Position numbers and translations under genes: made by a program. Below, piece after piece: positions 3,002 through 61,012 of a stretch of DNA of 64,000 bases (position 1 is its first letter; each line of letters opens with the position of its first letter). Source of the DNA: Escherichia coli (GTDB taxonomy: Bacteria; Pseudomonadota; Gammaproteobacteria; Enterobacterales; Enterobacteriaceae); the NCBI RefSeq assembly GCF_003334385.1, contig NZ_QOWN01000025.1; one strand, 5' to 3'. The notes under the pieces are model-generated. The model worked only from the letters and a program-made list of their open reading frames with translations. It was not told where the DNA came from and ran no database searches.

Positions 3002-4036
3002 ATGGCTTACTCTGTTCAAAAGTCGCGCCTGGCAAAGGTTGCGGGTGTTTCGCTTGTTTTATTACTCGCTGCCTGTAGTTCTGACTCACGCTATAAGCGT
3101 CAGGTCAGTGGTGATGAAGCCTACCTGGAAGCGGCACCGCTTGCGGAGCTTCATGCCCCGGCTGGAATGATTTTGCCGGTGACCTCCGGTGATTATGCAA
3201 TCCCGGTGACCAACGGTAGTGGTGCTGTCGGTAAGGCGCTGGACATTCGTCCACCAGCCCAGCCGCTGGCACTGGTTTCTGGCGCGCGTACCCAGTTCAC
3301 GGGCGATACCGCTTCATTGCTGGTGGAAAATGGTCGTGGCAATACTCTGTGGCCGCAGGTGGTTAGCGTGCTGCAGGCGAAAAACTACACCATCACCCAA
3401 CGTGATGATGCTGGTCAGACACTGACCACCGATTGGGTACAATGGAACCGTCTGGACGAAGACGAGCAGTATCGTGGTCGTTATCAAATCTCTGTTAAGC
3501 CGCAGGGTTATCAGCAGGCGGTTACGGTTAAACTGCTGAACCTGGAACAGGCGGGCAAACCGGTTGCAGACGCGGCTTCCATGCAGCGTTACAGCACGGA
3601 GATGATGAACGTTATTTCCGCCGGTCTGGATAAATCTGCCACTGACGCCGCGAACGCTGCGCAAAATCGTGCCTCCACCACTATGGACGTACAAAGTGCA
3701 GCTGATGACACCGGTTTACCAATGCTGGTCGTACGCGGGCCGTTCAATGTGGTTTGGCAACGTCTGCCAGCGGCGCTGGAAAAAGTGGGCATGAAAGTGA
3801 CCGACAGCACCCGTTCGCAGGGCAACATGGCCGTAACTTATAAGCCGCTGTCTGACAGCGACTGGCAGGAACTGGGCGCGAGCGATCCAGGCCTGGCATC
3901 CGGTGACTATAAACTGCAGGTTGGCGATTTAGATAACCGCAGCAGCCTACAGTTCATCGATCCGAAAGGTCATACTCTGACTCAGAGTCAGAACGACGCG
4001 CTGGTAGCTGTCTTCCAGGCTGCGTTTAGCAAGTAA
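3002..4036 (+). CDS. bamC: outer membrane protein assembly lipoprotein BamC (NlpB)
   Basis: 344 aa from ATG 3002; signal peptide with lipobox LLAAC; immediately downstream of dapA. Confidence 0.9.
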
Positions 4037-25812: not shown

Positions 25813-26061
25813 AGTTTAGCTGCAATATATTAGTAAAGCTTATTACTGAGTTTGCGAATAATAAAAAAAAGCAGTCTATATAATATCTCGATATTATTTT
25901 ATTTATATTCATGCGTTGCATATGAAAGTTTATGCACCACAGCGAATATCTCTCCATTCTTAGTGATCTACCTCACCTTTTAAACGCGCTTGCCGAATTT
26001 TGTTATTTACTCTGACGAAAAATTGTCACGATACACGAAAGTTTTTCACAGGCGGCGACTC

Positions 26062-26397
26062 ATGGATAAAGAACGCATCATTCAGGAATTTGTGCCCGGC
26101 AAACAGGTCACACTGGCGCATCTCATCGCGCATCCCGGTGAGGAACTGGCGAAGAAAATCGGCGTTCCGGATGCGGGCGCAATTGGCATTATGACGCTAA
26201 CTCCCGGCGAAACGGCGATGATCGCCGGTGATTTAGCGCTGAAAGCCGCTGATGTGCATATCGGTTTTCTCGACCGATTCAGCGGTGCATTGGTGATTTA
26301 TGGCTCGGTGGGCGCAGTAGAAGAAGCGTTATCACAAACCGTCAGCGGTTTAGGTCGCTTATTAAATTATACGCTTTGTGAAATGACCAAAAGTTAA
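26062..26397 (+). CDS. eutS: ethanolamine microcompartment shell protein EutS (permuted BMC domain)
   Basis: ATG 26062 gives [10 protein letters not shown] (111 aa); first gene of the eut cluster. Confidence 0.9.
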
Positions 26398-26409
26398 TAC
26401 GAGGCATTC

Positions 26410-26889
26410 ATGAAACGAATTGCGTTTGTGGGTAGCGTCGGGGCAGGAAAAACAACGTTATTTAATGCGTTGCAGGGGAATTATACCCTCGCCAGAAAAA
26501 CACAGGCCGTGGAATTTAATGATAAGGGCGATATTGATACGCCGGGTGAATATTTTAACCATCCCCGCTGGTATCACGCCTTAATTACCACGCTACAGGA
26601 TGTAGACATGCTGATCTATGTCCATGGCGCAAATGACCCGGAAAGTCGGTTGCCTGCCGGGTTGCTGGATATTGGCGTCAGCAAACGGCAAATCGCCGTC
26701 ATCAGTAAAACGGACATGCCAGATGCTGACGTCGCCGCAACGCGAAAGTTATTGCTTGAGACGGGTTTCGAAGAGCCGATTTTCGAGCTAAACAGCCACG
26801 ACCCGCAAAGCGTGCAGCAACTGGTGGATTATCTGGCATCTCTCACCAAACAGGAGGAAGCAGGTGAAAAAACTCATCACAGCGAATGA
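26410..26889 (+). CDS. eutP: ethanolamine utilisation P-loop NTPase
   Basis: 159 aa; Walker A GSVGAGKTT. Confidence 0.9.
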   Translation: MKRIAFVGSVGAGKTTLFNALQGNYTLARKTQAVEFNDKGDIDTPGEYFNHPRWYHALITTLQDVDMLIYVHGANDPESRLPAGLLDIGVSKRQIAVISKTDMPDADVAATRKLLLETGFEEPIFELNSHDPQSVQQLVDYLASLTKQEEAGEKTHHSE

Positions 26890-27565
26890 TATTCGTGAAG
26901 CACACGCGCGCGGCGAACAGGCAATGTCCGTGGTTCTGCGCGCCAGCATTATTACCCCGGAAGCCCGTGAAGTGGCGGATCTACTGGGTTTTACCATCAC
27001 CGAATGTGATGAATCGATCCCGGTAACGGCGTCCGTGCCCGCCAGCGTGCCAGCCGACAAAACCGAAAGCCAGCGCATCCGCGAAACCATCATTGCCCAG
27101 CTGCCGGAAGGCCAGTTTACCGAAAGCCTGGTCGCACAGCTGATGGAAAAAGTGATGAAGGAAAAACAGTCGCTGGAGCAGGGCGCAATGCAGCCGAGCT
27201 TCAAATCGGTGACCGGCAAAGGCGGCATCAAAGTGATTGATGGCAGTAGCGTCAAGTTTGGTCGTTTCGACGGCGCAGAGCCGCATTGCGTGGGCTTGAC
27301 TGATCTTGTGACCGGAGACGACGGCAGCAGCATGGCCGCCGGTTTTATGCAGTGGGAGAACGCATTCTTCCCGTGGACCCTGAACTACGACGAAATCGAC
27401 ATGGTGCTGGAAGGGGAGCTGCATGTTCGCCACGAAGGCCAAACCATGATCGCCAAAGCAGGCGACGTGATGTTTATCCCGAAAGGCTCCAGCATCGAAT
27501 TTGGTACGACATCCAGCGTGAAATTCCTGTATGTCGCCTGGCCGGCTAACTGGCAATCCCTATGA
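26864..27565 (+). CDS. eutQ: ethanolamine utilisation cupin-fold protein
   Basis: 233 aa; overlaps the eutP 3' end by 26 nt. Confidence 0.85.
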   Translation: MKKLITANDIREAHARGEQAMSVVLRASIITPEAREVADLLGFTITECDESIPVTASVPASVPADKTESQRIRETIIAQLPEGQFTESLVAQLMEKVMKEKQSLEQGAMQPSFKSVTGKGGIKVIDGSSVKFGRFDGAEPHCVGLTDLVTGDDGSSMAAGFMQWENAFFPWTLNYDEIDMVLEGELHVRHEGQTMIAKAGDVMFIPKGSSIEFGTTSSVKFLYVAWPANWQSL

Positions 27566-28365
27566 AAGATTTCATCACCGAAGCATGGCTAAGAGCGAAC
27601 CATACGCTCAGCGAAGGCGCAGAGATCCATCTCCCTGCGGACAGTCGCCTGACGCCCTCTGCCCGGGAGTTGCTGGAAAGCCGCCATCTGCGCATCAAGT
27701 TTATTGACGAGCAGGGCCGCCTGTTTGTTGACGATGAACAGCAGCAGCCGCAGCCCGTTCATGGGCTGACCAGTAGCGATGAACATCCGCAGGCGTGCTG
27801 CGAACTGTGTCGCCAGCCGGTGGCAAAAAAGCCGGATACGCTGACTCACCTGTCGGCGGAAAAAATGGTCGCCAAAAGCGATCCGCGTCTGGGTTTTCGC
27901 GCGGTTCTCGACAGCACCATTGCGCTGGCAGTGTGGCTGCAAATTGAACTGGCGGAACCGTGGCAGCCGTGGCTGGCGGATATCCGTTCGCGTCTTGGCA
28001 ACATTATGCGCGCCGATGCGCTGGGGGAACCGCTGGGCTGCCAGGCGATTGTCGGGCTTTCTGACGAAGATCTGCATCGGCTTTCTCATCAGCCGCTGCG
28101 CTATCTCGACCACGATCATCTGGTGCCGGAAGCCAGCCACGGGCGCGATGCTGCGTTGCTCAATCTGCTACGCACCAAAGTGCGGGAAACCGAAACCGTA
28201 GCGGCGCAGGTCTTTATCACCCGCAGCTTTGAAGTATTACGCCCGGACATTTTGCAGGCGCTGAACCGCCTTTCGAGCACGGTCTACGTGATGATGATCC
28301 TGAGCGTAACGAAGCAGCCGCTAACGGTGAAGCAGATCCAACAACGACTGGGGGAAACGCAATGA
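27562..28365 (+). CDS. eutT: ethanolamine utilisation cobalamin adenosyltransferase
   Basis: 267 aa; 4-nt overlap with eutQ; Cys-rich HPQACCELC motif. Confidence 0.85.
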
Positions 28366-29378
28366 TTATTGAACGTTGTCGTGAACTGGCGTTGCGAGCG
28401 CCCGCCAGAGTGGTTTTTCCGGATGCGTTAGACCAACGTGTGCTGAAAGCCGCGCAATATTTACATCAACAAGGTCTGGCAACGCCCATTCTGGTCGCCA
28501 ATCCGTTTGAACTTCGTCAGTTTGCGCTCAGTCACGGCGTGGCGATGGACGGGCTACAGGTGATTGATCCGCATGGCAACCTCGCAATGCGGGAAGAATT
28601 TGCTCATCGCTGGCTGGCCCGCGCGGGCGAAAAAACGCCGCCGGATGCGCTGGAAAAACTTACCGACCCTCTGATGTTCGCCGCAGCAATGGTCAGCGCC
28701 GGTAAAGCGGATGTCTGTATCGCGGGCAACCTCTCTTCCACGGCAAATGTGCTGCGTGCCGGATTACGCATTATCGGCTTGCAGCCAGGCTGTAAAACGC
28801 TCTCTTCCATTTTCCTGATGTTGCCACAGTACAGCGGCCCGGCGTTGGGCTTTGCCGATTGCAGCGTGGTGCCACAGCCGACGGCGGCGCAGCTGGCGGA
28901 TATCGCGCTTGCCAGTGCCGAAACCTGGCGCGCCATCACCGGAGAAGAGCCGCGCGTGGCGATGCTGTCGTTTTCCAGCAATGGTAGCGCCCGTCACCCC
29001 TGTGTTGCTAACGTCCAGCAGGCGACAGAAATCGTCCGTGAGCGCGCACCAAAGCTGGTGGTGGATGGCGAGTTACAGTTTGACGCCGCCTTCGTGCCGG
29101 AAGTGGCGGCGCAAAAAGCGCCTGCCAGCCCGCTACAGGGCAAGGCCAATGTGATGGTTTTTCCGTCGCTGGAAGCCGGAAATATTGGTTACAAAATCGC
29201 ACAACGACTCGGCGGATATCGTGCCGTCGGGCCACTGATACAAGGACTTGCCGCGCCGATGCACGATCTCTCTCGTGGTTGTAGCGTGCAGGAAATTATC
29301 GAGCTGGCGCTGGTGGCAGCTGTGCCGCGTCAGACAGAAGTGAACCGCGAAAGCAGTTTACAAACACTGGTTGAATGA
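28362..29378 (+). CDS. eutD: phosphotransacetylase EutD (EutI)
   Basis: 338 aa Pta-like; 4-nt overlap with eutT. Confidence 0.9.
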
Positions 29379-29416
29379 ACGGTCCCGTTCTGGACCCTGA
29401 TAAAGAGGAAAGCACA

Positions 29417-29710
29417 ATGGAAGCATTAGGAATGATCGAAACCCGGGGCCTGGTTGCACTGATTGAGGCTTCTGACGCGATGGTGAAAGCTGCGCGCGTC
29501 AAGCTGGTTGGTGTTAAGCAGATTGGCGGCGGCCTGTGTACTGCCATGGTTCGTGGTGATGTTGCAGCCTGTAAAGCCGCGACCGATGCAGGTGCCGCAG
29601 CGGCACAGCGTATCGGCGAGCTGGTATCTGTACACGTTATCCCGCGTCCGCACGGCGACCTGGAAGAAGTCTTCCCGATCGGCCTGAAAGGCGATAGCAG
29701 CAACCTGTAA
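29417..29710 (+). CDS. eutM: microcompartment shell protein EutM (BMC hexamer)
   Basis: ATG 29417 gives [26 protein letters not shown] (97 aa), canonical BMC domain. Confidence 0.9.
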
Positions 29711-29816
29711 TCACCCTGTGTGACGTCGATTCGGGCGTCACGCTCTCTCCTTTTTCATTTTACCTTCTGCGGAGGGTAGGGGGAGCTTTTACCTGAAATA
29801 CGCCACGGAGGCGGGT

Positions 29817-30104
29817 ATGAAACTGGCAGTCGTCACTGGACAAATTGTTTGTACCGTACGCCATCACGGACTGGCGCATGACAAATTGCTGATGGTGGAA
29901 ATGATTGATCCACAAGGTAATCCTGACGGGCAATGCGCCGTCGCCATCGACAATATTGGCGCGGGAACCGGGGAGTGGGTGTTACTGGTGAGTGGCAGTT
30001 CCGCCCGCCAGGCGCATAAAAGCGAAACGTCACCGGTCGATCTGTGCGTGATTGGCATTGTCGATGAGGTGGTGTCTGGCGGTCAGGTAATTTTCCACAA
30101 ATAA
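29817..30104 (+). CDS. eutN: microcompartment vertex protein EutN (BMV pentamer)
   Basis: 95 aa (MKLAVVTGQIVCTVRHHG). Confidence 0.9.
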   Translation: MKLAVVTGQIVCTVRHHGLAHDKLLMVEMIDPQGNPDGQCAVAIDNIGAGTGEWVLLVSGSSARQAHKSETSPVDLCVIGIVDEVVSGGQVIFHK

Positions 30105-30115
30105 GGCAGAACATC

Positions 30116-31519
30116 ATGAATCAACAGGATATTGAACAGGTGGTGAAAGCGGTACTGCTGAAAATGCAAAGCAGTGACACGCCGTCCGCCGCCGTTCATG
30201 AGATGGGCGTTTTCGCGTCCCTGGATGACGCCGTTGCGGCAGCCAAAGTCGCCCAGCAAGGGTTAAAAAGCGTGGCAATGCGCCAGTTAGCCATTGCTGC
30301 CATTCGTGAAGCAGGCGAAAAACACGCCAGAGATTTAGCGGAACTTGCCGTCAGTGAAACCGGCATGGGGCGCGTTGAAGATAAATTTGCAAAAAACGTC
30401 GCTCAGGCGCGCGGCACACCAGGCGTTGAGTGCCTCTCTCCGCAAGTGCTGACTGGCGACAACGGCCTGACCCTAATTGAAAACGCACCCTGGGGCGTGG
30501 TGGCTTCGGTGACGCCTTCCACTAACCCGGCGGCAACCGTAATTAACAACGCCATCAGCCTGATTGCCGCGGGCAACAGCGTCATTTTTGCCCCGCATCC
30601 GGCGGCGAAAAAAGTCTCCCAGCGGGCGATTACGCTGCTCAACCAGGCGATTGTTGCCGCAGGTGGGCCGGAAAACTTACTGGTTACTGTGGCAAATCCG
30701 GATATCGAAACCGCGCAACGCTTGTTCAAGTTTCCGGGTATCGGCCTGCTGGTGGTAACCGGCGGCGAAGCGGTAGTAGAAGCGGCGCGTAAACACACCA
30801 ATAAACGTCTGATTGCCGCAGGCGCTGGCAACCCGCCGGTAGTGGTGGATGAAACCGCCGACCTCGCCCGTGCCGCTCAGTCCATCGTCAAAGGCGCTTC
30901 TTTCGATAACAACATCATTTGTGCCGACGAAAAGGTACTGATTGTTGTTGATAGCGTAGCCGATGAACTGATGCGTCTGATGGAAGGCCAGCACGCGGTG
31001 AAACTGACCGCAGAACAGGCGCAGCAGCTGCAACCGGTGTTGCTGAAAAATATCGACGAGCGCGGAAAAGGCACCGTCAGCCGTGACTGGGTTGGTCGCG
31101 ACGCAGGCAAAATCGCGGCGGCAATCGGCCTTAAAGTTCCGCAAGAAACGCGCCTGCTGTTTGTGGAAACCACCGCAGAACATCCGTTTGCCGTGACTGA
31201 ACTGATGATGCCGGTGTTGCCCGTCGTGCGCGTCGCCAACGTGGCGGATGCCATTGCGCTAGCGGTGAAACTGGAAGGCGGTTGCCACCACACGGCGGCA
31301 ATGCACTCGCGCAACATCGAAAACATGAACCAGATGGCGAATGCTATTGATACCAGCATTTTCGTTAAGAACGGACCGTGCATTGCCGGGCTGGGGCTGG
31401 GCGGGGAAGGCTGGACCACCATGACCATCACCACGCCAACCGGTGAAGGGGTAACCAGCGCGCGTACGTTTGTCCGTCTGCGTCGCTGTGTATTAGTCGA
31501 TGCGTTTCGCATTGTTTAA
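30116..31519 (+). CDS. eutE: CoA-acylating acetaldehyde dehydrogenase
   Basis: 467 aa aldehyde dehydrogenase family; N-terminal amphipathic helix (encapsulation-peptide-like). Confidence 0.9.
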   Translation: MNQQDIEQVVKAVLLKMQSSDTPSAAVHEMGVFASLDDAVAAAKVAQQGLKSVAMRQLAIAAIREAGEKHARDLAELAVSETGMGRVEDKFAKNVAQARGTPGVECLSPQVLTGDNGLTLIENAPWGVVASVTPSTNPAATVINNAISLIAAGNSVIFAPHPAAKKVSQRAITLLNQAIVAAGGPENLLVTVANPDIETAQRLFKFPGIGLLVVTGGEAVVEAARKHTNKRLIAAGAGNPPVVVDETADLARAAQSIVKGASFDNNIICADEKVLIVVDSVADELMRLMEGQHAVKLTAEQAQQLQPVLLKNIDERGKGTVSRDWVGRDAGKIAAAIGLKVPQETRLLFVETTAEHPFAVTELMMPVLPVVRVANVADAIALAVKLEGGCHHTAAMHSRNIENMNQMANAIDTSIFVKNGPCIAGLGLGGEGWTTMTITTPTGEGVTSARTFVRLRRCVLVDAFRIV

Positions 31520-31529
31520 GGAGTAACAG

Positions 31530-32366
31530 ATGGCGCACGACGAACAATGGCTCACCCCACGTCTGCAAACGGCGGCAACGCTGTGTAACCAGACGCCCGC
31601 CGCGACGGAATCTCCGCTGTGGCTGGGGGTGGATCTGGGCACCTGCGATGTGGTGTCGATGGTTGTCGACCGCGACGGTCAGCCAGTGGCGGTATGCCTC
31701 GACTGGGCCGATGTGGTTCGCGACGGCATCGTCTGGGATTTCTTCGGCGCTGTCACCATTGTTCGTCGCCATCTCGACACGCTCGAGCAGCAATTCGGTC
31801 GTCGTTTTAGCCATGCGGCGACTTCATTTCCTCCAGGTACGGACCCGCGTATTTCCATCAACGTGCTGGAATCTGCCGGACTGGAAGTGAGCCATGTGCT
31901 GGATGAGCCAACCGCAGTTGCGGATCTGCTGCAACTGGACAACGCCGGTGTAGTGGATATCGGCGGCGGCACTACCGGCATTGCCATCGTGAAAAAGGGC
32001 AAGGTGACGTACTCGGCGGATGAAGCCACCGGCGGACATCACATCTCTCTGACTCTCGCCGGAAATCGCCGTATTTCGCTGGAAGAGGCGGAGCAGTACA
32101 AGCGCGGTCACGGTGAAGAGATTTGGCCTGCGGTGAAACCGGTGTACGAAAAAATGGCGGACATTGTCGCCCGGCATATTGAAGGGCAGGGCATTACTGA
32201 TTTATGGCTGGCGGGCGGCTCTTGTATGCAACCGGGCGTGGCGGAACTGTTTCGCAAACAATTCCCGGCGTTACAGGTGCATTTACCGCAGCACAGTTTG
32301 TTTATGACCCCGCTGGCGATCGCCAGTAGTGGGCGAGAGAAAGCGGAGGGGCTATATGCAAAATGA
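31530..32366 (+). CDS. eutJ: Hsp70/actin-fold chaperone-like protein EutJ
   Basis: 278 aa; DLGTCDV and DIGGGTTG ATPase motifs. Confidence 0.9.
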   Translation: MAHDEQWLTPRLQTAATLCNQTPAATESPLWLGVDLGTCDVVSMVVDRDGQPVAVCLDWADVVRDGIVWDFFGAVTIVRRHLDTLEQQFGRRFSHAATSFPPGTDPRISINVLESAGLEVSHVLDEPTAVADLLQLDNAGVVDIGGGTTGIAIVKKGKVTYSADEATGGHHISLTLAGNRRISLEEAEQYKRGHGEEIWPAVKPVYEKMADIVARHIEGQGITDLWLAGGSCMQPGVAELFRKQFPALQVHLPQHSLFMTPLAIASSGREKAEGLYAK

Positions 32367-33543
32367 ATTGCAGACCGCGCTCTTTCAGGCGTTCGATACC
32401 CTGAATCTGCAACGGGTAAAAACATTTAGCGTTCCACCGGTGACGCTTTGCGGTCCGGGCTCGGTGAGCAGTTGCGGACAGCAAGCGCAAACGCGTGGGC
32501 TGAAACATCTGTTCGTGATGGCAGACAGCTTTTTGCATCAGGCAGGGATGACCGCCGGGCTGACGCGTAGCCTGACCGTTAAAGGTATCGCCATGACGCT
32601 CTGGCCATGTCCGGTGGGCGAACCGTGCATTACCGACGTGTGTGCAGCCGTGGCGCAGTTGCGTGAGTCAGGCTGTGATGGGGTGATCGCGTTTGGCGGC
32701 GGCTCGGTGCTGGATGCGGCGAAAGCCGTGACGTTGCTGGTGACGAACCCGGATAGCACGCTGGCAGAGATGTCAGAAACCAGCGTTCTGCAACCGCGCT
32801 TGCCGCTGATTGCCATTCCAACTACCGCCGGAACCGGCTCTGAAACCACCAATGTAACGGTGATTATCGACGCGGTGAGCGGGCGCAAGCAGGTGTTAGC
32901 CCATGCCTCGCTGATGCCGGATGTGGCGATCCTCGACGCCGCATTGACCGAAGGTGTGCCGTCGCATGTCACGGCGATGACCGGCATTGATGCGTTAACC
33001 CATGCCATTGAAGCATACAGCGCCCTGAACGCTACACCGTTTACCGACAGTCTGGCGATTGGTGCCATTGCGATGATTGGCAAATCGCTGCCGAAAGCGG
33101 TGGGCTACGGTCACGACCTTGCCGCGCGCGAGAGCATGTTGCTGGCTTCATGTATGGCGGGAATGGCGTTTTCCAGTGCGGGTCTTGGGTTGTGCCACGC
33201 GATGGCGCATCAGCCGGGCGCGGCGCTGCATATTCCGCACGGTCTCGCGAACGCCATGTTGCTGCCAACGGTGATGGAATTTAACCGGATGGTTTGTCGT
33301 GAACGCTTTAGTCAGATTGGTCGGGCACTGCGAACTAAAAAATCCGACGATCGTGACGCTATTAACGCGGTAAGTGAGCTGATTGCGGAAGTTGGGATTG
33401 GTAAACGACTGGGCGATGTTGGTGCGACATCTGCGCATTACGGCGCATGGGCGCAGGCCGCGCTGGAAGATATTTGTCTGCGCAGTAACCCGCGTACCGC
33501 CAGCCTGGAGCAGATTGTCGGCCTGTACGCAGCGGCGCAATAA
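32356..33543 (+). CDS. eutG: iron-containing alcohol dehydrogenase EutG
   Basis: ORF 32329..33543; ATG 32356 gives MQNELQTALF (395 aa); overlaps eutJ by 11 nt. Confidence 0.9.
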   Translation: MQNELQTALFQAFDTLNLQRVKTFSVPPVTLCGPGSVSSCGQQAQTRGLKHLFVMADSFLHQAGMTAGLTRSLTVKGIAMTLWPCPVGEPCITDVCAAVAQLRESGCDGVIAFGGGSVLDAAKAVTLLVTNPDSTLAEMSETSVLQPRLPLIAIPTTAGTGSETTNVTVIIDAVSGRKQVLAHASLMPDVAILDAALTEGVPSHVTAMTGIDALTHAIEAYSALNATPFTDSLAIGAIAMIGKSLPKAVGYGHDLAARESMLLASCMAGMAFSSAGLGLCHAMAHQPGAALHIPHGLANAMLLPTVMEFNRMVCRERFSQIGRALRTKKSDDRDAINAVSELIAEVGIGKRLGDVGATSAHYGAWAQAALEDICLRSNPRTASLEQIVGLYAAAQ

Positions 33544-33545
33544 AT

Positions 33546-33745
<200 letters not shown>

Positions 33746-33759
33746 AGGGAGTAAAGGCG

Positions 33760-34986
33760 ATGGGAATTAACGAAATCATCATGTACATCATGATGTTCTT
33801 TATGCTGATAGCTGCCGTAGACAGGATCCTGTCGCAGTTCGGCGGTTCTGCTCGTTTCCTCGGTAAGTTCGGTAAAAGTATCGAAGGATCAGGCGGTCAG
33901 TTCGAAGAAGGCTTTATGGCAATGGGCGCACTGGGCCTGGCGATGGTCGGTATGACCGCGCTGGCACCGGTACTGGCTCACGTTCTCGGGCCGGTAATTA
34001 TTCCGGTTTACGAAATGCTCGGCGCTAACCCATCGATGTTCGCCGGAACACTGCTGGCGTGCGATATGGGCGGCTTCTTCCTCGCCAAAGAGCTGGCGGG
34101 CGGCGACGTAGCCGCGTGGCTATACTCTGGGTTAATTCTCGGGTCGATGATGGGGCCAACGATTGTGTTTTCCATTCCGGTGGCGCTCGGCATTATCGAA
34201 CCTTCTGACCGTCGTTATCTGGCGCTCGGCGTGCTGGCGGGCATTGTGACCATTCCGATTGGTTGTATCGCTGGTGGTCTGGTTGCTATGTACTCCGGTG
34301 TGCAGATCAACGGCCAGCCGGTGGAATTCACTTTCGCCCTGATCCTGATGAACATGATCCCGGTGATCATTGTTGCGATTCTGGTGGCGCTGGGGCTGAA
34401 ATTCATCCCGGAAAAAATGATCAACGGCTTCCAGATCTTCGCCAAATTCCTCGTTGCATTGATCACCCTCGGTCTTGCCGCTGCGGTAGTGAAATTCCTG
34501 CTTGGCTGGGAACTGATCCCCGGTCTGGATCCTATCTTTATGGCCCCTGGCGATAAACCCGGTGAGGTGATGCGCGCCATTGAAGTTATCGGTTCTATCT
34601 CCTGCGTTCTGTTAGGGGCGTATCCGATGGTGCTGCTGCTGACTCGCTGGTTTGAAAAACCGCTGATGAGCGTCGGTAAAGTACTGAATATGAACAACAT
34701 CGCGGCAGCCGGCATGGTGGCAACGCTTGCCAACAACATCCCGATGTTCGGCATGATGAAGCAGATGGATACCCGCGGCAAAGTCATCAACTGCGCCTTC
34801 GCCGTTTCCGCTGCTTTCGCCCTGGGCGACCACTTAGGCTTCGCCGCTGCCAACATGAACGCCATGATCTTCCCGATGATTGTCGGCAAGTTGATCGGCG
34901 GCGTAACGGCGATTGGCGTGGCGATGATGCTGGTGCCAAAAGAAGACGCGACCGCGACTAAAACCGAAGCGGAGGCACAATCGTGA
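33760..34986 (+). CDS. eutH: ethanolamine permease EutH
   Basis: 408 aa polytopic membrane protein. Confidence 0.9.
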   Translation: MGINEIIMYIMMFFMLIAAVDRILSQFGGSARFLGKFGKSIEGSGGQFEEGFMAMGALGLAMVGMTALAPVLAHVLGPVIIPVYEMLGANPSMFAGTLLACDMGGFFLAKELAGGDVAAWLYSGLILGSMMGPTIVFSIPVALGIIEPSDRRYLALGVLAGIVTIPIGCIAGGLVAMYSGVQINGQPVEFTFALILMNMIPVIIVAILVALGLKFIPEKMINGFQIFAKFLVALITLGLAAAVVKFLLGWELIPGLDPIFMAPGDKPGEVMRAIEVIGSISCVLLGAYPMVLLLTRWFEKPLMSVGKVLNMNNIAAAGMVATLANNIPMFGMMKQMDTRGKVINCAFAVSAAFALGDHLGFAAANMNAMIFPMIVGKLIGGVTAIGVAMMLVPKEDATATKTEAEAQS

Positions 34987-36386
34987 ACACTCGCCAGCTA
35001 TTGAGCGTCGGTATCGATATCGGCACCACCACCACCCAGGTGATTTTCTCCCGGCTGGAGCTGGTTAACCGTGCGGCGGTGTCGCAGGTGCCGCGCTACG
35101 AATTCATTAAACGCGAAATTAGCTGGCAAAGTCCGGTGTTCTTTACCCCTGTCGATAAACAGGGCGGTTTAAAAGAAGCGGAACTGAAAACCTTAATACT
35201 CGAGCAATATCATGCTGCGGGTATTGAGCCGGAAAGCGTTGATTCTGGTGCCATCATCATCACCGGTGAAAGCGCGAAAACCCGCAATGCTCGCCCGGCG
35301 GTGATGGCGCTCTCTCAGTCGCTGGGCGATTTTGTCGTTGCCAGCGCCGGGCCGCACCTCGAATCCGTGATCGCCGGTCACGGAGCCGGGGCACAAACCC
35401 TTTCTGAACAACGGCTGTGTCGGGTACTGAATATCGACATCGGCGGTGGCACCGCGAACTACGCCCTGTTCGATGCCGGAAAAATCAGCGGCACTGCCTG
35501 CCTCAACGTCGGTGGTCGCCTGCTGGAAACCGACAGCCACGGGCGCGTGGTTTACGCTCATAAACCGGGGCAGATGATTGTGGATGAGTGCTTCGGTGCA
35601 GGCACCGACGCCCGTTCGCTGACCGGCGCGCAGCTGGTGCAGGTGACCCGGCGGATGGCAGAACTGATTGTCGAAGTGATTGACGGAACGCTCTCACCGC
35701 TCGCGCAGGCATTGATGCAAACCGGTTTGCTGCCCGCAGGTGTTACGCCCGAAATCATTACGCTTTCTGGCGGCGTGGGCGAATGTTATCGCCACCAGCC
35801 CGCCGACCCGTTCTGTTTTGCCGATATTGGCCCGCTGCTGGCAACTGCGCTGCATGACCATCCGCGCCTGCGTGAGATGAACGTACAGTTTCCGGCGCAA
35901 ACCGTGCGCGCCACGGTGATTGGCGCGGGCGCGCATACCCTTTCGCTCTCTGGCAGCACAATCTGGCTTGAGGGCGTACAACTGCCGCTGCGCAATTTGC
36001 CGGTGGCGATCCCGATTGATGAAACGGATCTGGTGGGGGCCTGGCAACAGGCGCTGATTCAGCTGGATCTTGATCCCAAAACTGACGCGTACGTGCTGGC
36101 GCTTCCCGCCTCGCTGCCTGTGCGTTACGCCGCGGTACTGACGGTCATCAACGCGTTGGTCGATTTCGTCGCGCGTTTTCCGAATCCGCATCCCCTGCTG
36201 GTGGTGGCCGGGCAGGACTTTGGTAAAGCTCTGGGCATGTTGTTGCGCCCACAGCTACAACAACTCCCGTTGGCAGTCATTGACGAAGTGATTGTCCGCG
36301 CGGGGGACTATATCGACATTGGTACGCCTCTTTTTGGCGGATCGGTTGTGCCGGTGACGGTGAAATCACTCGCATTTCCTTCCTGA
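34983..36386 (+). CDS. eutA: ethanolamine ammonia-lyase reactivase EutA
   Basis: 467 aa; 4-nt overlap with eutH. Confidence 0.9.
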   Translation: MNTRQLLSVGIDIGTTTTQVIFSRLELVNRAAVSQVPRYEFIKREISWQSPVFFTPVDKQGGLKEAELKTLILEQYHAAGIEPESVDSGAIIITGESAKTRNARPAVMALSQSLGDFVVASAGPHLESVIAGHGAGAQTLSEQRLCRVLNIDIGGGTANYALFDAGKISGTACLNVGGRLLETDSHGRVVYAHKPGQMIVDECFGAGTDARSLTGAQLVQVTRRMAELIVEVIDGTLSPLAQALMQTGLLPAGVTPEIITLSGGVGECYRHQPADPFCFADIGPLLATALHDHPRLREMNVQFPAQTVRATVIGAGAHTLSLSGSTIWLEGVQLPLRNLPVAIPIDETDLVGAWQQALIQLDLDPKTDAYVLALPASLPVRYAAVLTVINALVDFVARFPNPHPLLVVAGQDFGKALGMLLRPQLQQLPLAVIDEVIVRAGDYIDIGTPLFGGSVVPVTVKSLAFPS

Positions 36387-36397
36387 GGGAACGACTT

Positions 36398-37760
36398 ATG
36401 AAACTAAAGACCACATTGTTCGGCAATGTATATCAGTTTAAGGATGTAAAAGAGGTGCTGGCTAAAGCCAACGAACTGCGTTCGGGGGATGTGCTGGCGG
36501 GCGTCGCAGCGGCAAGCTCACAGGAGCGCGTGGCGGCAAAGCAGGTGTTGTCGGAAATGACCGTAGCGGACATCCGCAATAATCCGGTGATTGCCTATGA
36601 AGATGACTGCGTGACGCGGCTGATTCAGGACGATGTTAACGAAACGGCCTACAACCAGATTAAAAACTGGAGCATCAGCGAACTGCGTGAGTATGTGCTG
36701 AGCGATGAAACCAGCGTGGACGACATTGCCTTTACCCGCAAAGGGCTGACCTCGGAAGTGGTCGCGGCGGTAGCGAAGATTTGCTCCAACGCGGACCTGA
36801 TCTACGGCGCGAAGAAAATGCCGGTAATCAAAAAGGCCAATACCACCATCGGTATTCCGGGCACCTTTAGCGCCCGTTTGCAGCCAAATGACACCCGTGA
36901 CGACGTGCAAAGTATCGCCGCGCAAATCTACGAAGGGCTTTCCTTCGGGGTGGGCGATGCGGTGATCGGCGTTAACCCGGTGACTGACGACGTGGAAAAC
37001 TTAAGCCGCGTGTTGGATACCATCTATGGCGTGATCGACAAATTCAACATCCCAACTCAGGGCTGTGTACTGGCGCACGTCACCACCCAGATCGAAGCGA
37101 TCCGTCGTGGCGCACCGGGCGGGCTGATTTTCCAGAGTATCTGTGGCAGCGAAAAAGGGCTGAAAGAGTTTGGCGTGGAGCTGGCGATGCTCGACGAAGC
37201 GCGCGCAGTGGGCGCGGAGTTCAACCGTATCGCCGGGGGAAAACTGCCTCTACTTCGAAACCGGACAAGGCTCTGCGCTATCCGCTGGCGCTAACTTCGG
37301 CGCAGACCAGGTAACGATGGAAGCACGTAACTACGGGCTGGCGCGTCATTACGATCCGTTTATCGTCAACACCGTGGTCGGCTTTATTGGGCCGGAGTAT
37401 CTCTACAACGACCGCCAGATTATCCGTGCTGGCTTAGAAGATCACTTTATGGGCAAGCTGAGCGGCATCTCTATGGGCTGTGACTGCTGTTATACCAACC
37501 ACGCTGACGCTGACCAGAACCTCAACGAAAACCTGATGATCCTGCTCGCCACCGCAGGCTGCAACTACATCATGGGGATGCCGCTGGGTGATGACATCAT
37601 GCTCAACTACCAGACCACCGCATTCCACGATACCGCCACTGTGCGTCAGTTACTCAACCTGCGCCCGTCACCGGAGTTTGAACGCTGGCTGGAAAGCATG
37701 GGCATTATGGCAAACGGTCGCCTGACCAAACGGGCGGGCGATCCGTCACTGTTCTTCTGA
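36398..37760 (+). pseudogene. eutB: ethanolamine ammonia-lyase heavy chain, disrupted by a +1 frameshift
   Basis: Track splits EutB into 36398..37294 (298 aa) and 37170..37760 (196 aa). Frames switch at the G5 run 37235..37239: upstream frame reads ...FNRIAGG then nonsense; downstream frame reads ...SPGENCLYFETGQGS. Total span is 1363 nt, i.e. 454 codons plus one extra base. Confidence 0.8.
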
Positions 37761-37780
37761 TGACGCGGAGATAACATATC

Positions 37781-38668
37781 ATGGATCAAAAACAGATTGA
37801 AGAAATTGTACGCAGCGTGATGGCGTCAATGGGACAAGCGGCCCCCGCGCCGTCAGAAGCAAAGTGCGCCACCACCAACTGTGCGGCACCGGTGACCTCG
37901 GAAAGCTGTGCGCTGGATTTAGGTTCCGCTGAAGCAAAAGCGTGGATTGGTGTTGAAAATCCGCATCGCGCAGACGTATTAACAGAACTGCGCCGCAGCA
38001 CCGTGGCCCGCGTTTGTACCGGTCGTGCCGGTCCGCGTCCACGTACGCAGGCGCTGCTGCGTTTCCTGGCCGATCACTCTCGTTCGAAAGATACCGTACT
38101 GAAAGAAGTGCCGGAAGAGTGGGTGAAAGCGCAGGGCTTGCTGGAAGTACGCTCTGAAATTAGCGACAAAAATCTCTACCTGACTCGCCCGGATATGGGC
38201 CGCCGCCTGTGTGCAGAAGCTGTTGAAGCGCTGAAAGCGCAGTGTGTTGCCAATCCGGACGTACAGGTCGTTATTTCTGATGGCCTGTCAACTGATGCGA
38301 TCACCGTGAACTACGAAGAGATCCTGCCACCGCTGATGGCGGGCCTGAAACAGGCCGGGCTGAAAGTCGGTACACCATTCTTTGTTCGTTATGGTCGCGT
38401 GAAGATTGAAGATCAGATCGGTGAGATCCTCGGCGCGAAAGTAGTGATCCTGCTGGTGGGCGAACGTCCGGGGTTGGGTCAGTCAGAAAGCCTCTCCTGC
38501 TACGCCGTTTACTCGCCGCGTATGGCGACCACCGTTGAGGCCGATCGCACCTGTATCTCTAACATTCACCAGGGCGGCACGCCGCCGGTTGAAGCCGCAG
38601 CCGTCATTGTGGATTTGGCGAAACGTATGCTGGAGCAGAAAGCATCCGGCATCAACATGACCCGATAA
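37781..38668 (+). CDS. eutC: ethanolamine ammonia-lyase light chain
   Basis: 295 aa; N-terminal [17 protein letters not shown] amphipathic targeting-peptide-like segment. Confidence 0.9.
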
Positions 38669-38677
38669 GGAGGCATC

Positions 38678-39337
38678 ATGCCAGCTTTAGATTTGATTCG
38701 ACCGTCTGTCACCGCTATGCGGGTGATTGCCTCCGTTAACGCCGATTTTGCGCGTGAACTGAAATTGCCGCCGCATATTCGTAGCCTCGGTCTGATTTCT
38801 GCCGACTCCGATGACGTCACCTACATTGCCGCTGATGAAGCGACCAAGCAGGCGATGGTGGAAGTGGTGTATGGCCGCTCGCTATATGCGGGCGCTGCAC
38901 ACGGCCCGTCACCGACTGCCGGTGAAGTGCTGATTATGCTTGGTGGGCCAAACCCGGCGGAAGTGCGTGCAGGTCTGGATGCGATGATTGCGCATATTGA
39001 AAATGGCGCAGCTTTCCAGTGGGCTAATGACGCGCAAGATACGGCATTCCTGGCACATGTAGTTTCGCGTACCGGTTCTTATCTCTCATCAACCGCCGGG
39101 ATCACGCTTGGCGATCCGATGGCGTATCTGGTGGCACCGCCGCTGGAAGCGACCTATGGCATTGATGCAGCCCTGAAGTCTGCCGACGTACAGCTGGCGA
39201 CCTATGTCCCGCCACCGTCTGAAACCAACTACTCGGCAGCATTTTTAACCGGTAGCCAGGCAGCGTGTAAAGCAGCCTGTAACGCCTTTACCGATGCAGT
39301 GCTGGAAATCGCGCGTAATCCAATCCAGCGTGCGTAA
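38678..39337 (+). CDS. eutL: microcompartment shell protein EutL (tandem BMC)
   Basis: 219 aa. Confidence 0.9.
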
Positions 39338-39349
39338 CGGAGGTTGCCG

Positions 39350-39850
39350 ATGATCAATGCACTGGGATTGCTGGAAGTGGACGGCATGGTCGCCGCGATA
39401 GATGCAGCGGATGCCATGCTCAAAGCAGCTAACGTTCGTCTGCTCAGTCACGAAGTGCTTGACCCTGGTCGCTTAACGCTGGTGGTGGAAGGCGATCTGG
39501 CGGCGTGTCGTGCGGCGCTGGACGCAGGTTGTGCTGCCGCGATGCGTACCGGGCGTGTCATCAGCCGCAAGGAGATCGGTCGGCCAGACGATGACACCCA
39601 GTGGCTGGTTACTGGCTTTAACCGCCAGCCGAAGCAACCCGTAAGGGAACCCGACGCGCCAGTTATCGTCGCGGAATCTGCTGACGAGTTGTTGGCGCTG
39701 TTAACATCAGTACGTCAGGGAATGACGGCAGGAGAAGTGGCTGCCCACTTTGGCTGGCCGCTGGAAAAAGCCAGAAATGCGCTCGAACAGCTCTTTTCTG
39801 CCGGGACGTTACGTAAACGCAGTAGTCGTTATCGTCTCAAGCCCCATTAA
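39350..39850 (+). CDS. eutK: microcompartment shell protein EutK (BMC plus C-terminal HTH-like domain)
   Basis: ORF 39344..39850; ATG 39350 gives MINALGLLEVDGMVAAIDAADAMLKAA (166 aa). Confidence 0.85.
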   Translation: MINALGLLEVDGMVAAIDAADAMLKAANVRLLSHEVLDPGRLTLVVEGDLAACRAALDAGCAAAMRTGRVISRKEIGRPDDDTQWLVTGFNRQPKQPVREPDAPVIVAESADELLALLTSVRQGMTAGEVAAHFGWPLEKARNALEQLFSAGTLRKRSSRYRLKPH

Positions 39851-39895
39851 CCTGTCGGAGGTGCCGGGTGTCCTACAACACCCGGCATTAACATC

Positions 39896-40948
39896 ATGAA
39901 AAAGACCCGTACAGCCAATTTGCACCATCTTTATCATGAACCCTTACCCGAAAACCTGAAGCTCACGCCGAAGGTCGAAGTGGATAATGTTCATCAACGA
40001 CAGACAACGGATGTCTATGAACATGCTTTAACGATTACCGCCTGGCAGCAGATTTACGATCAGCTGCATCCGGGCAAGTTTCATGGTGAATTTACGGAAA
40101 TTCTACTCGATGATATTCAGGTTTTTCGTGAATACACCGGTCTGGCGCTGCGTCAGTCGTGCCTGGTCTGGCCGAACTCGTTCTGGTTTGGCATTCCGGC
40201 GACGCGCGGTGAGCAGGGATTTATCGGTTCGCAATGTCTGGGAAGCGCGGAAATCGCCACCCGCCCTGGTGGCACTGAATTTGAACTGAGCACGCCGGAT
40301 GATTACACGATCCTGGGCGTGGTGCTTTCTGAAGATGTCATCACCCGGCAGGCTAACTTTTTGCATAACCCGGATCGGGTATTACATATGTTGCGTAACC
40401 AGTCGGCGCTGGAAGTGAAAGAGCAGCATAAAGCCGCGCTGTGGGGCTTTGTCCAACAGGCGCTGGCGACGTTTTGCGAGAATCCGGAAAATCTCCATCA
40501 GCCTGCAGTGCGAAAAGTGCTGGGGGATAATTTGCTAATGGCGATGGGGGCCATGCTGGAAGAAGCGCAACCAATGGTGACGGCGGAAAGCATCAGTCAT
40601 CAGAGTTACCGTCGATTGCTTTCCCGCGCCCGTGAATATGTGCTGGAAAACATGTCCGAACCGGTGACGGTGCTGGATTTGTGTAATCAACTGCATGTCA
40701 GCCGCCGCACGCTACAAAACGCGTTTCACGCTATTTTAGGCATTGGCCCGAACGCGTGGCTGAAACGCATTCGCCTGAACGCCGTACGCCGCGAACTGAT
40801 AAGTCCGTGGTCGCAAAGTATGACGGTAAAAGACGCCGCCATGCAGTGGGGATTCTGGCATCTGGGGCAATTTGCCACGGATTACCAGCAGCTGTTTTCC
40901 GAGAAGCCGTCACTGACGCTGCATCAGCGGATGCGGGAGTGGGGGTGA
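39896..40948 (+). CDS. eutR: AraC-family transcriptional activator of the eut operon
   Basis: 350 aa; C-terminal AraC HTH; last gene of the cluster. Confidence 0.9.
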
Positions 40949-59284: not shown

Positions 59285-61012
59285 TTAGCAGATTGTTTTT
59301 TCTTCAATGAACTTGTTAACCAGCGTCATTAACTCGTCCGTTGTCGGTTGAGCAAGAGCCTGCTCTGCTAACACCTTCGCATCTTCGAAGTTCGTGTTAC
59401 GGATAATCTTCTTAATGCGCGGGATAGAAATGGCGCTCATAGAGAATTCGTCCAGACCCATCCCCAGCAACAGAAGTGTAGCACGTTCATCGCCAGCAAG
59501 CTCACCACACATGCCAGTCCATTTGCCTTCAGCATGAGAAGCATCAATAACTTGCTTGATCAAGTTCAGCACGGACGGTGACATTGGCTGGTAAAGGTGT
59601 GAAATCATATCATTACCACGGTCAACTGCCAGAGTGTACTGCGTTAAATCATTGGTGCCGATACTAAAGAAATCAACTTCTTTGGCTAAATGACGTGCAA
59701 TTGTTGCGGCAGCCGGTGTTTCCACCATTACGCCGATTTCAATTGACTCGTCAAACGCTTTACCTTCGTCGCGCAGTTCCTGTTTGTAGATTTCGATCTC
59801 TTTGCGCAGTGCACGCACTTCTTCAACAGAGATGATCATCGGGAACATAATGCGCAATTTACCGAAAGCCGAGGCACGCAGGATAGCGCGGAGCTGATCG
59901 CGCAGGATCTCTCTACGATCCATCGCGATACGGATAGCGCGCCAGCCGAGGAACGGGTTCTCTTCTTTCGGGAAGTTCATGTATGGCAGCTCTTTGTCGC
60001 CGCCGATGTCCATGGTACGAACGATAACCGCTTGCGAGCCACACGCTTCAGCCACTGCTTTGTAAGCAGCAAACTGTTCTTCTTCAGTGGGCAGTGCGTC
60101 GCGGTCCATGAACAGGAACTCAGTACGATACAGACCAACGCCTTCAGCGCCGTTACGCTCTGCACCTTCAACGTCACGAACCGTACCAATGTTAGCGCAT
60201 ACTTCTACCTGGTGACCGTCCAGCGTAATAGCTGGCAGATCTTTCAGTTTAGCAAGCTCTGCTTTTTCAGAAGCCACTTGCTCCTGAACAGCGCGCATTT
60301 TATCAATAACTTCGTTGGTTGGATTGACGTAAACCTGATTATTTACGGCATCCAGAATCAGATAGTCGTCATTTTTCACCTGAGAGGTGACGCTACCGGT
60401 ACCCACGATAGCAGGTAGTTCCAGAGAACGCGCCATGATAGAGGTGTGGGAAGTACGGCCACCCGCGTCGGTGATGAAACCCAGCACCTTCTTCAGGTTC
60501 AGCTGTGCGGTTTCGGACGGCGTCAGGTCAGCGGCAACCAGAATGACTTCATCCTGAATGGCGCTCAGGTCGATAATCTTCAGGCCCAGGATGTTGCGCA
60601 GCAGGCGCTTACCGATATCACGTACGTCAGCCGCACGTTCTTTCAGGTATTCATCATCCAGCTCTTCCAGGGCAGAAGCCTGACCTTCGATAACTTCATG
60701 AGCAGCTGCGTCAGCTGTCATGTGCTTATCTTTAATCAGGGCTATGATTTCCTGCTCCAGCTCCTCATCTTCGAGCAGCATAATATGCCCTTCAAAGATG
60801 GCTTCTTTTTCTTCACCGAACGTTTCACCAGCTTTCGTTTTGATCGTTTCCAGCTGGGCTGATGCCTTGGCACGACCGCTCAGAAAACGTTCAACTTCCT
60901 GATCAACCTGGTCGGCAGAAATTTTTTTCCGGTCAATGACAATTTCGTCTTCTTTCAGAAGCAGAGCTTTACCGAAAGCGATACCCGGGGATGCTAAAAT
61001 GCCTGAAATCAT
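59285..61012 (-). CDS. ptsI: PTS enzyme I
   Basis: 575 aa ([19 protein letters not shown]). Confidence 0.95.

Follow-up and report, generated by a model that had tools for sequence, protein, structure and literature searches.

A one-base insertion in a G run of eutB, very probably an inherited pseudogene of a rare phylogroup-A lineage of Escherichia coli

The window analysed here, a stretch of 64,000 nucleotides of E. coli DNA, harbours a complete eut operon, in which the gene order eutH-eutA-eutB-eutC-eutL-eutK-eutR is identical to that of the annotated records of strains SCU-104 and LR-06. Translation of every annotated gene revealed 61 of 62 genes to be intact, the sole broken one being eutB, and thereby upheld, within the window, the statement of the sequence-only reading that none of the 16 remaining eut genes is shortened. 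The context of eutB is the usual one, with eutA upstream, eutC immediately downstream and both lying inside eutS...eutR; eutA ends at position 36386, eutB starts at 36398, and no prophage is present there in the window. The features concerned are as follows.

26062..40948, + strand: eut operon, eutS-P-Q-T-D-M-N-E-J-G-H-A-B-C-L-K-R (coordinates carried over from the annotated records of SCU-104 and LR-06)
36398..37760, + strand: whole eutB pseudogene, ethanolamine ammonia-lyase large (alpha) subunit, at 1363 nt one longer than the usual 1362
36398..37294, + strand: ORF translated from the eutB start, 298 aa, residues 1-280 native followed by GKLPLLRNRTRLCAIRWR (ORF list)
37235..37239, + strand: G5 run, the inserted G being the lesion; ancestral G4, GCC GGG GAA AAC (direct reading and alignment with LR-06)
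37239..37760, + strand: out-of-frame eutB remainder, native codons 281-453 plus stop; the ORF at 37170-37760 reads ...GENCLYFETGQGSALSAG...
37317..37760, + strand: 147-aa C-terminal fragment from Met307 (gene calls downstream of the break)
37781..38668, + strand: eutC, small subunit, intact ORF of 295 aa

Read directly, positions 37229-37245 of the window are ATCGCCGGGGGAAAACT, with five G at 37235-37239. Alignment with LR-06, a strain with four G and an intact operon, opens one single-base gap at the run, and within the eut operon the extra G at 37235 is the sole difference between the two. Over 49.9 kb the window and LR-06 are separated by two indels only, the second being A8 versus A7 at 25863-25870, upstream of eutS. 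The frame that starts with the ATG at 36398 runs through ...EFNRIAG into GKLPLLRNRTRLCAIRWR and stops at 37292-37294, giving a product of 298 aa, while the following frame, ...SPGENCLYFETGQGSALSAG..., ends at the native eutB stop at 37760. In this way eutB is split after 280 native codons, which are followed by 18 out-of-frame codons, the first wrong residue being 281.

Direct reading and the ORF translations therefore bear out what had been claimed from the letters alone, namely a five-G run at 37235..37239 that splits eutB, an upstream frame ending in ...EFNRIAG and a native frame resuming downstream. The early stop and the C-terminal loss described there are real, but the figures attached to them require correction: the stop was placed 20 codons past the shift, where 18 wrong residues put it at about 19 codons, and the loss was given as about 175 residues, where it is 173. 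The claim that one G fewer restores a 453-codon EutB proved correct, as removal of one G yields a continuous 453-aa protein, and this repaired translation aligns along its whole length, residues 1-453, with 3ABO_A, the E. coli EutB chain of a solved PDB structure (E = 0, 1019.5 bits); similarity to characterised EutB is thus full-length once the G is removed. In a precomputed table, the EutB family of Pfam (PF06751) hits both fragments. The 147-aa C-terminal fragment is a separate gene call in loci L002-L005, and the same call accompanies any upstream break of eutB, with at least 1000 contigs showing it. RefSeq annotates eutB on the identical stretch of SCU-104 as a pseudogene, 'frameshifted'; in that strain the break is already flagged by standard annotation, and the gene is an ordinary pseudogene.

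With positions taken from the repaired translation, Glu287, Asp362 and Met392 are encoded past residue 280 and out of frame only. Residues 281-306, Glu287 included, belong to neither the 298-aa nor the 147-aa fragment, even if the latter is translated. The window eutB lacks an uninterrupted frame carrying Arg160, Gln162, Asn193, Glu287, Asp362 and Met392 and, as judged from its reading frames, is a pseudogene of the EutB family rather than a functional member. Glu287 is a key residue in the radical-pair formation and migration chemistry of this enzyme (PMC4413051; PMC8473560). Ribosomes that start at the eutB ATG would make 280 native and 18 wrong residues and stop, leaving out the C-terminal 173 residues. 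Since the truncated protein would lack the catalytic Glu287 together with the active-site residues Asp362 and Met392, it would not be expected to provide ethanolamine ammonia-lyase, and no active EutBC could form. The lack of active EutBC would in turn render the eut operon non-functional despite its other genes being intact, and the strain should fail to use ethanolamine as a nitrogen or carbon source, a predicted Eut-minus phenotype.

The eutC gene, left without its partner, lies downstream of ∼490 nt of eutB RNA that is now untranslated. A polar effect of the eutB lesion on eutC through eutR is possible. The terminator scan, which says nothing useful about polarity, gave two overlapping terminator-like matches at 37730-37747, near the native eutB end (2 found, 0.6 ± 0.9 expected), and no such site ahead of that end.

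The exact 298-aa frameshift product is present on 105 public contigs (NCBI, ENA, JGI/IMG, Logan) from unrelated projects, is indexed in 204 blocks, and has accessions that include EOU57532.1 (E. coli KTE14) and STM32534.1. The carrier assemblies comprise short-read isolate and metagenome assemblies, a fragmented draft, long-contig and hybrid assemblies. Five G were read directly in all eight carrier loci:

SCU-104, complete genome, hybrid MiSeq + MinION: five G
ERZ826796, SPAdes-style contig, coverage 237: five G
ERZ27269188, MEGAHIT-style contig: five G
GCA_030007155.1: five G
GCA_900449955.1, 5.29-Mb contig: five G
GCA_037022815.1: five G
GCA_000407805.1: five G
GCA_002190145.1, draft contig LYBI01000528.1: five G

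The last of these, LYBI01000528.1, is identical to the window over 21,425 nt (100% identity), the run included. Contigs of the Logan runs ERR1948963 and SRR7819145 ended short of eutB. SCU-104, which belongs to sequence type ST8125, shows zero indels relative to the window over the aligned positions 53-64000 and 10 differences, all of them transitions. This spectrum prompted the idea of a mutator (mismatch-repair-deficient) lineage, in which indels in homopolymers would be favoured as well; the idea was dropped once more carriers were added, since the spectrum then became mixed (5 transversions among ∼15 point changes) and the SNP density was ordinary.

Among complete genomes the allele is rare. 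A 66-nt probe for the site matched 5235 complete E. coli genomes, of which SCU-104 alone was 100% identical, whereas the other 39 among the matches listed span 65 bases rather than 66. The window thus departs from 5234 of the 5235 by a discrete change, for which chance does not come into question. A 44-nt five-G probe, which cannot seed on four-G alleles, found one of 5426 complete E. coli genomes, again SCU-104. In metagenomes, a wobble-tolerant five-G pattern matched 0 contigs versus 58 for the four-G pattern, the latter number being a small denominator for the comparison. The five-G allele on any other haplotype was found neither among the 5426 complete genomes nor among the 58 metagenome contigs. 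In seven of the eight carrier loci, those that span the gene whole, eutB equals the common phylogroup-A allele save for the G; the remaining carrier (L077), which covers the window only from position 36981, matches it at 100% identity from there on, run included. The sequence-only reading had named two observations that would tell against it, and neither was made: four G were seen in no assembly of the carrier lineage, nor did any intact eutB turn up with five G in this place. No paper describing a five-G eutB allele was found in the literature.

From the SNPs over 20.9 kb of flanking sequence a conflict-free tree was obtained, (L004, L005), (window, (L003, (SCU-104, L002))), with the lesion preceding every split among the compared loci. 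The same allele in all carriers, together with the absence of conflict among the flanking SNPs, is what is seen in a lineage-specific pseudogene inherited by descent. Because the five-G group has no private SNP in the window besides the G itself, its monophyly rests on the shared lesion and the compatible flanking SNPs, and the allele could also have spread by recombination within the one haplotype. Taken together, the eutB lesion is very probably a genuine, inherited slippage pseudogene of single origin, accompanied by loss of Eut function. Replication slippage would have added one G to GGGG at eutB codons 280-281 (GCC GGG GAA to GCC GGG GGA), presumably once, in a rare phylogroup-A lineage of E. 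coli that has inherited the insertion since. Three options had been offered at the outset, and only the genuine inactivating mutation is retained, because the same frameshift occurs on 105 contigs from unrelated projects and its carriers form one group with branches; a phase-variable site and a homopolymer sequencing error, the two others, are set aside for the reasons given below.

The operon has been damaged further within the carrier group. Nonsense mutations were found in eutN (Q65*, in SCU-104 and L002), in eutA (Q302*, in L004, L005 and L016, on 28 contigs) and in eutR (E42*, in L003), none of which is carried by the window type. The locus L011 has the same 209-aa eutR gene call as L003, E42* itself having been read only in L003. 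In total, eight eut coding changes were counted among the carriers (three nonsense, four missense, one synonymous) versus five coding changes in a 6.3 kb flank, and with such tiny counts the eut and flanking genes do not differ significantly. One must also bear in mind that the look-up displays only loci with differing neighbour proteins, and the count of eut lesions is biased towards broken genes. The secondary nonsense mutations therefore fit decay after function had been lost, a loss old enough to have left its mark, and relaxed selection is at most suggested by them, since the sample of lesions is biased and the numbers are small.

The same mutations may be read as adaptive rather than neutral, the loss of Eut having been selected and the subsequent mutations of eutR, eutN and eutA serving to silence a microcompartment operon that had become wasteful. 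Three independent nonsense mutations in three sub-branches, making up 3 of 8 eut coding changes versus roughly 5% expected for random mutations, speak for it, as do the varied lesions by which eut genes, eutB among them, have been broken in many other lineages of E. coli and Shigella. However, the sampling favours loci with altered gene sets, the comparison with the flanking genes, tiny in its numbers, is not significant, and neutral decay after the first knockout predicts the same pattern. Moreover, eutN Q65* is due to a C-to-T substitution of the inner C in a CCAGG site, a known deamination hotspot, so that its recurrence needs no selection. Adaptive loss is hence considered unlikely, though not negligible. 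Slightly less likely still seems the particular version in which Eut loss is advantageous in this commensal phylogroup-A lineage and selection drove the parallel silencing (eutR E42*, eutN Q65*, eutA Q302*); the cost of a microcompartment without its signature enzyme could be the cause of such silencing.

Returning to the pseudogene itself, the break might be leaky, with ribosomes slipping +1 on GGG-G often enough to make full-length EutB and keep the operon useful. In +1 frameshifting, re-pairing of the P-site tRNA is a general mechanism, and GCC GGG GGA permits perfect P-site re-pairing of tRNA-Gly in the +1 frame, the product being exactly wild type; the codon that follows GGG is the infrequent GGA, and the window type keeps its 16 other eut genes intact. 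Yet other E. coli lack the site, so that it is no conserved programmed signal, and it has neither an in-frame stop codon nor an upstream Shine-Dalgarno-like stimulator of the prfB kind, the zero-frame codon past GGG being GGA rather than a stop. Spontaneous +1 shifting at such sites usually stays well under 1%. The loss of eutN, eutA or eutR in sub-branches suggests that the operon is not under purifying selection, and the intact operon of the window is equally well explained by a recent lesion, there being no other change in the operon relative to LR-06. Some full-length EutB might be produced at a low level by a +1 slip on GGG-G, but recoding that keeps the operon useful is regarded as very improbable.

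A phase-variable (contingency) site, at which the G tract would toggle eutB by reversible slippage at a useful rate, is more improbable again. The lesion is indeed a +1 change in a homopolymer that a -1 change would restore, and three G stand at the run in L009, an assembly resembling K-12. In its type of mutation, and in that alone, the lesion resembles the contingency loci of Neisseria, Haemophilus, Campylobacter and others, where a one-base change in a homopolymer within a coding region shifts the frame. Known contingency loci, however, have tracts of roughly 7 or more bases, whereas the tract in eutB, a metabolic gene, counts four G in its ancestral form and five here. The run is unremarkable among the 13 eutB runs of at least four bases, which include a native G5 at gene positions 87-91. 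Length does not vary among the carriers, all eight loci having five G despite divergence sufficient for secondary mutations, and the only other variant is the three-G run of L009; its interpretation as tract instability was rejected, as this assembly shows further long-read-type indels within 4.4 kb (at a CCTGG site and a G5 run). Nor does the off form recur in unrelated backgrounds, since all carriers share one eutB haplotype and the searches of 5426 complete genomes and 58 metagenome contigs gave no five-G allele on another. Permanent knockouts of eutN, eutA and eutR would not be expected of a switch kept in use.

Just as hard to credit is a homopolymer sequencing or assembly error in a genome that truly has four G and an intact eutB, even though long-read and older pyrosequencing data are notorious for gaining or losing single bases in G runs, the allele occurs in just one of 5426 complete genomes, and error-bearing assemblies of the region do exist (L012 with four single-base insertions in eutB alone, L009 with three G at the run plus two more deletions nearby). 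Those assemblies are recognised by their many indels, 31 gap openings in 6.4 kb for L012 and 7 in 4.4 kb for L009; the five-G allele, in contrast, is accompanied by zero indels versus SCU-104 and by no other broken gene in 64 kb (one of 62 in all). Nor is it restricted to a single assembly or error-prone technology, since the identical allele recurs in eight or more records of various kinds, each assembled on its own, and on 105 contigs in all, and the window matches a fragmented draft (contig 528 of LYBI01) of the sort typical of short reads. Finally, the carriers share descent, and the eut nonsense substitutions of their sub-branches are no homopolymer artefact. Error is rejected because exact recurrence across these assemblies is not expected of it.

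As an inherited eutB pseudogene, the five-G allele may be compared with several known systems. Strains of Salmonella enterica and E. coli made eutB-null in the laboratory cannot draw nitrogen or carbon from ethanolamine, although the remainder of the operon is present. Like them, the carriers have no large catalytic subunit of the adenosylcobalamin-dependent ethanolamine ammonia-lyase; unlike them, they bear a natural allele of a wild lineage, found on ∼100 public contigs, and their phenotype is a predicted one. Other E. coli and Shigella eut pseudogenes likewise have a gene or the operon inactivated in wild strains, and the broken eutB genes give the same 147-aa fragment call. Among natural eutB lesions, Q304* was found in L007, L013 and L014 and a 13-nt duplication in L008 and L010; the source names for eutN Q65* include Shigella sonnei and S. 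boydii. These differ from the insertion in their mutational nature, Q304* and eutN Q65* being C-to-T changes at CCAGG and the duplication lying between GCGCTA repeats, and in distribution, for Q304* and the duplication are found on more than one haplotype and the +G allele on one alone.

In the eut operon of E. coli K-12, whose coding sequences stay intact, the prophage CPZ-55 lies between eutA and eutB; in the K-12-like assembly L009 a phage integrase is located directly upstream of eutB. K-12 and the window each carry a lineage-specific structural lesion in this section of the operon and have a phylogroup-A background, and K-12 eutB is 99.9% identical to that of the window with one gap. The K-12 insertion, however, is placed between genes, while the lesion of the window is inside the coding sequence with no prophage involved. 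A further case is the commensal E. coli BG1, which has all 17 eut genes yet cannot assimilate ethanolamine (PMC5634895). Premature stops are absent in BG1, and suspicion falls on a 72-bp in-frame insertion in eutT together with 34 amino-acid changes (PMC5634895). Both are wild commensal E. coli with eut genes, BG1 being a non-user and the window a predicted one, but in the window the cause would be an unambiguous eutB frameshift.

Beyond the strain itself the significance of the finding is little. As a method, it offers an example of how a real homopolymer frameshift may be told apart from an error without reads, that is, by the exact product in independent assemblies, by intact neighbouring genes, and by descent with secondary decay. 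The extra G is, in addition, a clean single-base marker for the lineage. Should selected silencing be true after all, the carrier group would represent a natural time series of operon shut-down. Ethanolamine is a gut nutrient exploited by many E. coli (PMC6168858), and the truncated frame predicts that a rare, human-associated phylogroup-A lineage, of which SCU-104 is a member, would be unable to use it.

The eutB gene (large, catalytic subunit of ethanolamine ammonia-lyase) is the one damaged member of the eut operon, and the features concerned are as follows.

26062..40948, + strand, eut operon of 17 genes
36398-37760, + strand, eutB pseudogene
37235-37239, + strand, run of five G within ATCGCCGGGGGAAAACT (37229-37245; sequence read directly)
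37292-37294, + strand, stop codon of the frame opened at the ATG 36398

The frame from the ATG reads ...EFNRIAG, continues with GKLPLLRNRTRLCAIRWR and yields a product of 298 aa, while ...GENCLYFETGQGSALSAG... is carried in the next frame through to the native eutB stop at 37760. Deletion of one G gives a 453-aa protein matching residues 1-453 of the solved E. coli EutB chain 3ABO_A (E = 0). The sequence-only reading, that eutB is split by an extra G and would be repaired by one G less, is therefore retained, with its counts slightly corrected: residue 280 is the last correct one, the out-of-frame tail is 18 residues long, and 173 residues of the native protein are missing. The statement that the other 16 eut genes are full length was borne out as well, since gene-by-gene translation of the genes with coordinates transferable from annotated relatives found 61 of the 62 in the window intact, all 16 among them.

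Among complete E. coli genomes the allele is extremely rare. The 1363-nt eutB found matches in 5390 of 5426 genomes, but a base-for-base match only in SCU-104 (NZ_CP053284.1), where RefSeq already annotates eutB as a 'frameshifted' pseudogene; the next-best matches, K-12 MG1655 included, show 99.9% identity over a span of 1362 nt. A 66-nt probe of the site was 100% identical in one of 5235 genomes, and the other 39 among the matches listed span 65 nt. SCU-104 was also the sole match in complete genomes of a 44-nt five-G probe, designed to lack any 28-base seed on four-G alleles, and no five-G allele on another haplotype was found with it there. A wobble-tolerant scan of metagenome contigs returned 0 matches to the five-G pattern versus 58 to the four-G pattern. 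In strain LR-06 (four G) all 17 eut genes are annotated as intact, and the extra G is its only difference from the window inside the operon.

Five G were read directly in eight carrier loci, and the exact 298-aa product occurs on 105 contigs in NCBI, ENA, JGI/IMG and Logan (204 blocks in the index), including EOU57532.1 (E. coli KTE14) and STM32534.1.

Carriers of the five-G allele
SCU-104, complete genome, MiSeq plus MinION reads, hybrid assemblers (PMC7407071)
ERZ826796, SPAdes-style contig name, coverage 237
ERZ27269188, MEGAHIT-style contig name
GCA_900449955.1, 5.29-Mb contig
GCA_030007155.1, GCA_037022815.1, GCA_000407805.1 and GCA_002190145.1

Seven of the eight loci cover the whole of eutB and carry exactly the common phylogroup-A sequence plus the G; the eighth (L077) covers only the part from window 36981 onward and matches the window exactly over that part. 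SCU-104 itself belongs to phylogroup A, ST8125 (PMC11251922). The sites that vary across the 20.9 kb in common give, with no conflict, the branching order (L004, L005), window, L003, (SCU-104, L002), all of these being carriers. Of the three explanations offered by the sequence-only reading, a genuine inactivating mutation is thus the one supported. Phase variation of the G run is not supported: five G occur on no other haplotype searched, and nothing marks the run as a designed switch, because the tract is short and eutB holds 13 homopolymer runs of at least 4 bases, one of them a native G5. A homopolymer sequencing error, the third option, is rejected, as a random error would not recur identically in such different assemblies, and error-bearing assemblies look different (L012, 4 single-base insertions within eutB and 31 gap openings in 6.4 kb; L009, 7 gap openings in 4.4 kb).

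Several smaller irregularities were seen in related loci. The K-12-like L009 (GCA_053109875.1) has only three G in this run (window-equivalent 37235-37236), and it also lacks one base at a CCTGG site and one in a G5 run of eutR (40165, 40522); most likely these are long-read errors and no second natural allele. In the carrier L005 (GCA_900449955.1) three additional single-base deletions (30265, 40472, 41667) split eutE, eutR and hemF; they are absent from other carriers and may be real or assembly errors. The metagenome-derived carrier L003 shows 6 substitutions, 5 of them synonymous, within 43 nt of eutG (codons 63-77; 32544-32586), which may be the trace of a short recombined tract or of a chimera in the metagenome contig.

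Within the first 41.4 kb compared, 10 substitutions separate the window from SCU-104; three more lie at 3133, 8748 and 10925 and two more at 60494 and 62194, and there are no indels across the aligned 53-64000. The draft contig LYBI01000528.1 (GCA_002190145.1, 70.9 kb) is 100% identical to the window across 21,425 nt, five G included. Compared with SCU-104 and LR-06, murP of the window has two private non-synonymous changes, 96 nt apart (47300, G369E; 47396, P337L); the exact MurP protein, found on 5 contigs in one look-up and on 7 in another, led to LYBI01000528.1. The window therefore very probably derives from this fragmented draft assembly or from an isolate almost identical to it. The sole other indel relative to LR-06 in 49.9 kb is a run of A8 at 25863-25870, shared with SCU-104, versus A7 in LR-06; it lies between maeB and eutS, roughly 190 nt ahead of eutS. 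The window starts (1-75) inside an IS186/IS421-type element, presumably IS186, whose 23-bp terminal repeat CAACCCTTAAGTTAGCGCTTATG (53-75) adjoins GGGGATCCTCCCC at the 3' end of hyfA (stop at 64-66). At this junction RefSeq annotates a transposase of the IS421 family (IS4-like). Of the 5426 complete genomes, 51 have the same junction. The 23-bp repeat is present here in SCU-104 too, with divergence beyond it, which would fit an element in the opposite orientation, judging by the two ends of IS186.

Three carrier sub-branches each bear an additional eut nonsense mutation of their own, the window type bearing none.

30009 (window-equivalent), eutN Q65*, in SCU-104 and L002 (L001/L002); eutN is thus an internal-stop pseudogene in SCU-104 through one substitution and intact in the window
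35886, eutA Q302*, in L004, L005 and L016; truncated product on 28 contigs
40019, eutR E42*, in L003; L011 has a eutR gene call of the same 209 aa

The most parsimonious order places the eutB frameshift before the other hits. Coding changes in eut amount to 3 nonsense, 4 missense and 1 synonymous, versus 5 in 6.3 kb of flank. The later hits fit relaxed selection on an operon already without its key enzyme, although this is only suggestive, because the counts are small and the look-up preferentially displays loci with differing gene sets. They may reflect selection to silence the operon rather than drift.

Truncated EutB keeps Arg160, Gln162 and Asn193, with Asp362, Met392 and Glu287 beyond the break, the last described as a key residue in radical-pair formation and the migration step (PMC4413051; PMC8473560). 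Gene callers report a C-terminal fragment of 147 aa starting at Met307; since residues 281-306 are absent from both pieces, a split enzyme is not plausible. E. coli is not known to have a second ethanolamine ammonia-lyase, and use of ethanolamine by carriers is therefore not expected. The ~490 nt of untranslated eutB RNA upstream of eutC might in addition have a polar effect that lowers expression of the genes from eutC to eutR. Ribosomes may slip +1 on GGG-G and leave a trace of full-length EutB, but nothing points to a programmed slip, given the unshifted gene of other E. coli and the lack of a stop codon at the site.

Other eut lesions recur where the +G allele does not. eutB Q304* (L007, L013, L014; 37308) was found on two haplotypes, and eutN Q65* on 190 contigs, among whose source names are Shigella sonnei and S. 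boydii. Both TAG alleles, which recur in other lineages, arise from CAG by C-to-T at the inner C of CCAGG (Dcm), a classic methyl-cytosine deamination hotspot, and both sites look like such hotspots. In L008 and L010 eutB is interrupted after gene position 875-876 (about 37274) by a tandem duplication of 13 nt, GCGCTATCCGCTG, with GCGCTA repeats on its flanks. The duplication occurs on two haplotypes, of which one otherwise equals the repaired allele of the window and the other differs from it at 34 places, which suggests a recurrent microhomology-mediated event. The CCAGG hotspots and GCGCTA repeats would thus account for the recurrence of these lesions, unlike the +G allele with its single haplotype. 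E. coli K-12 carries a prophage between eutA and eutB, and in L009 eutB is preceded by an integrase gene. The commensal strain BG1 is unable to use ethanolamine in spite of an operon without stop codons (PMC5634895), unlike the window with its eutB frameshift. The +G allele is an ordinary slippage-type frameshift pseudogene, which standard annotation already flags and which serves as a lineage marker; in nature, E. coli and Shigella commonly lose eut function, by many routes.
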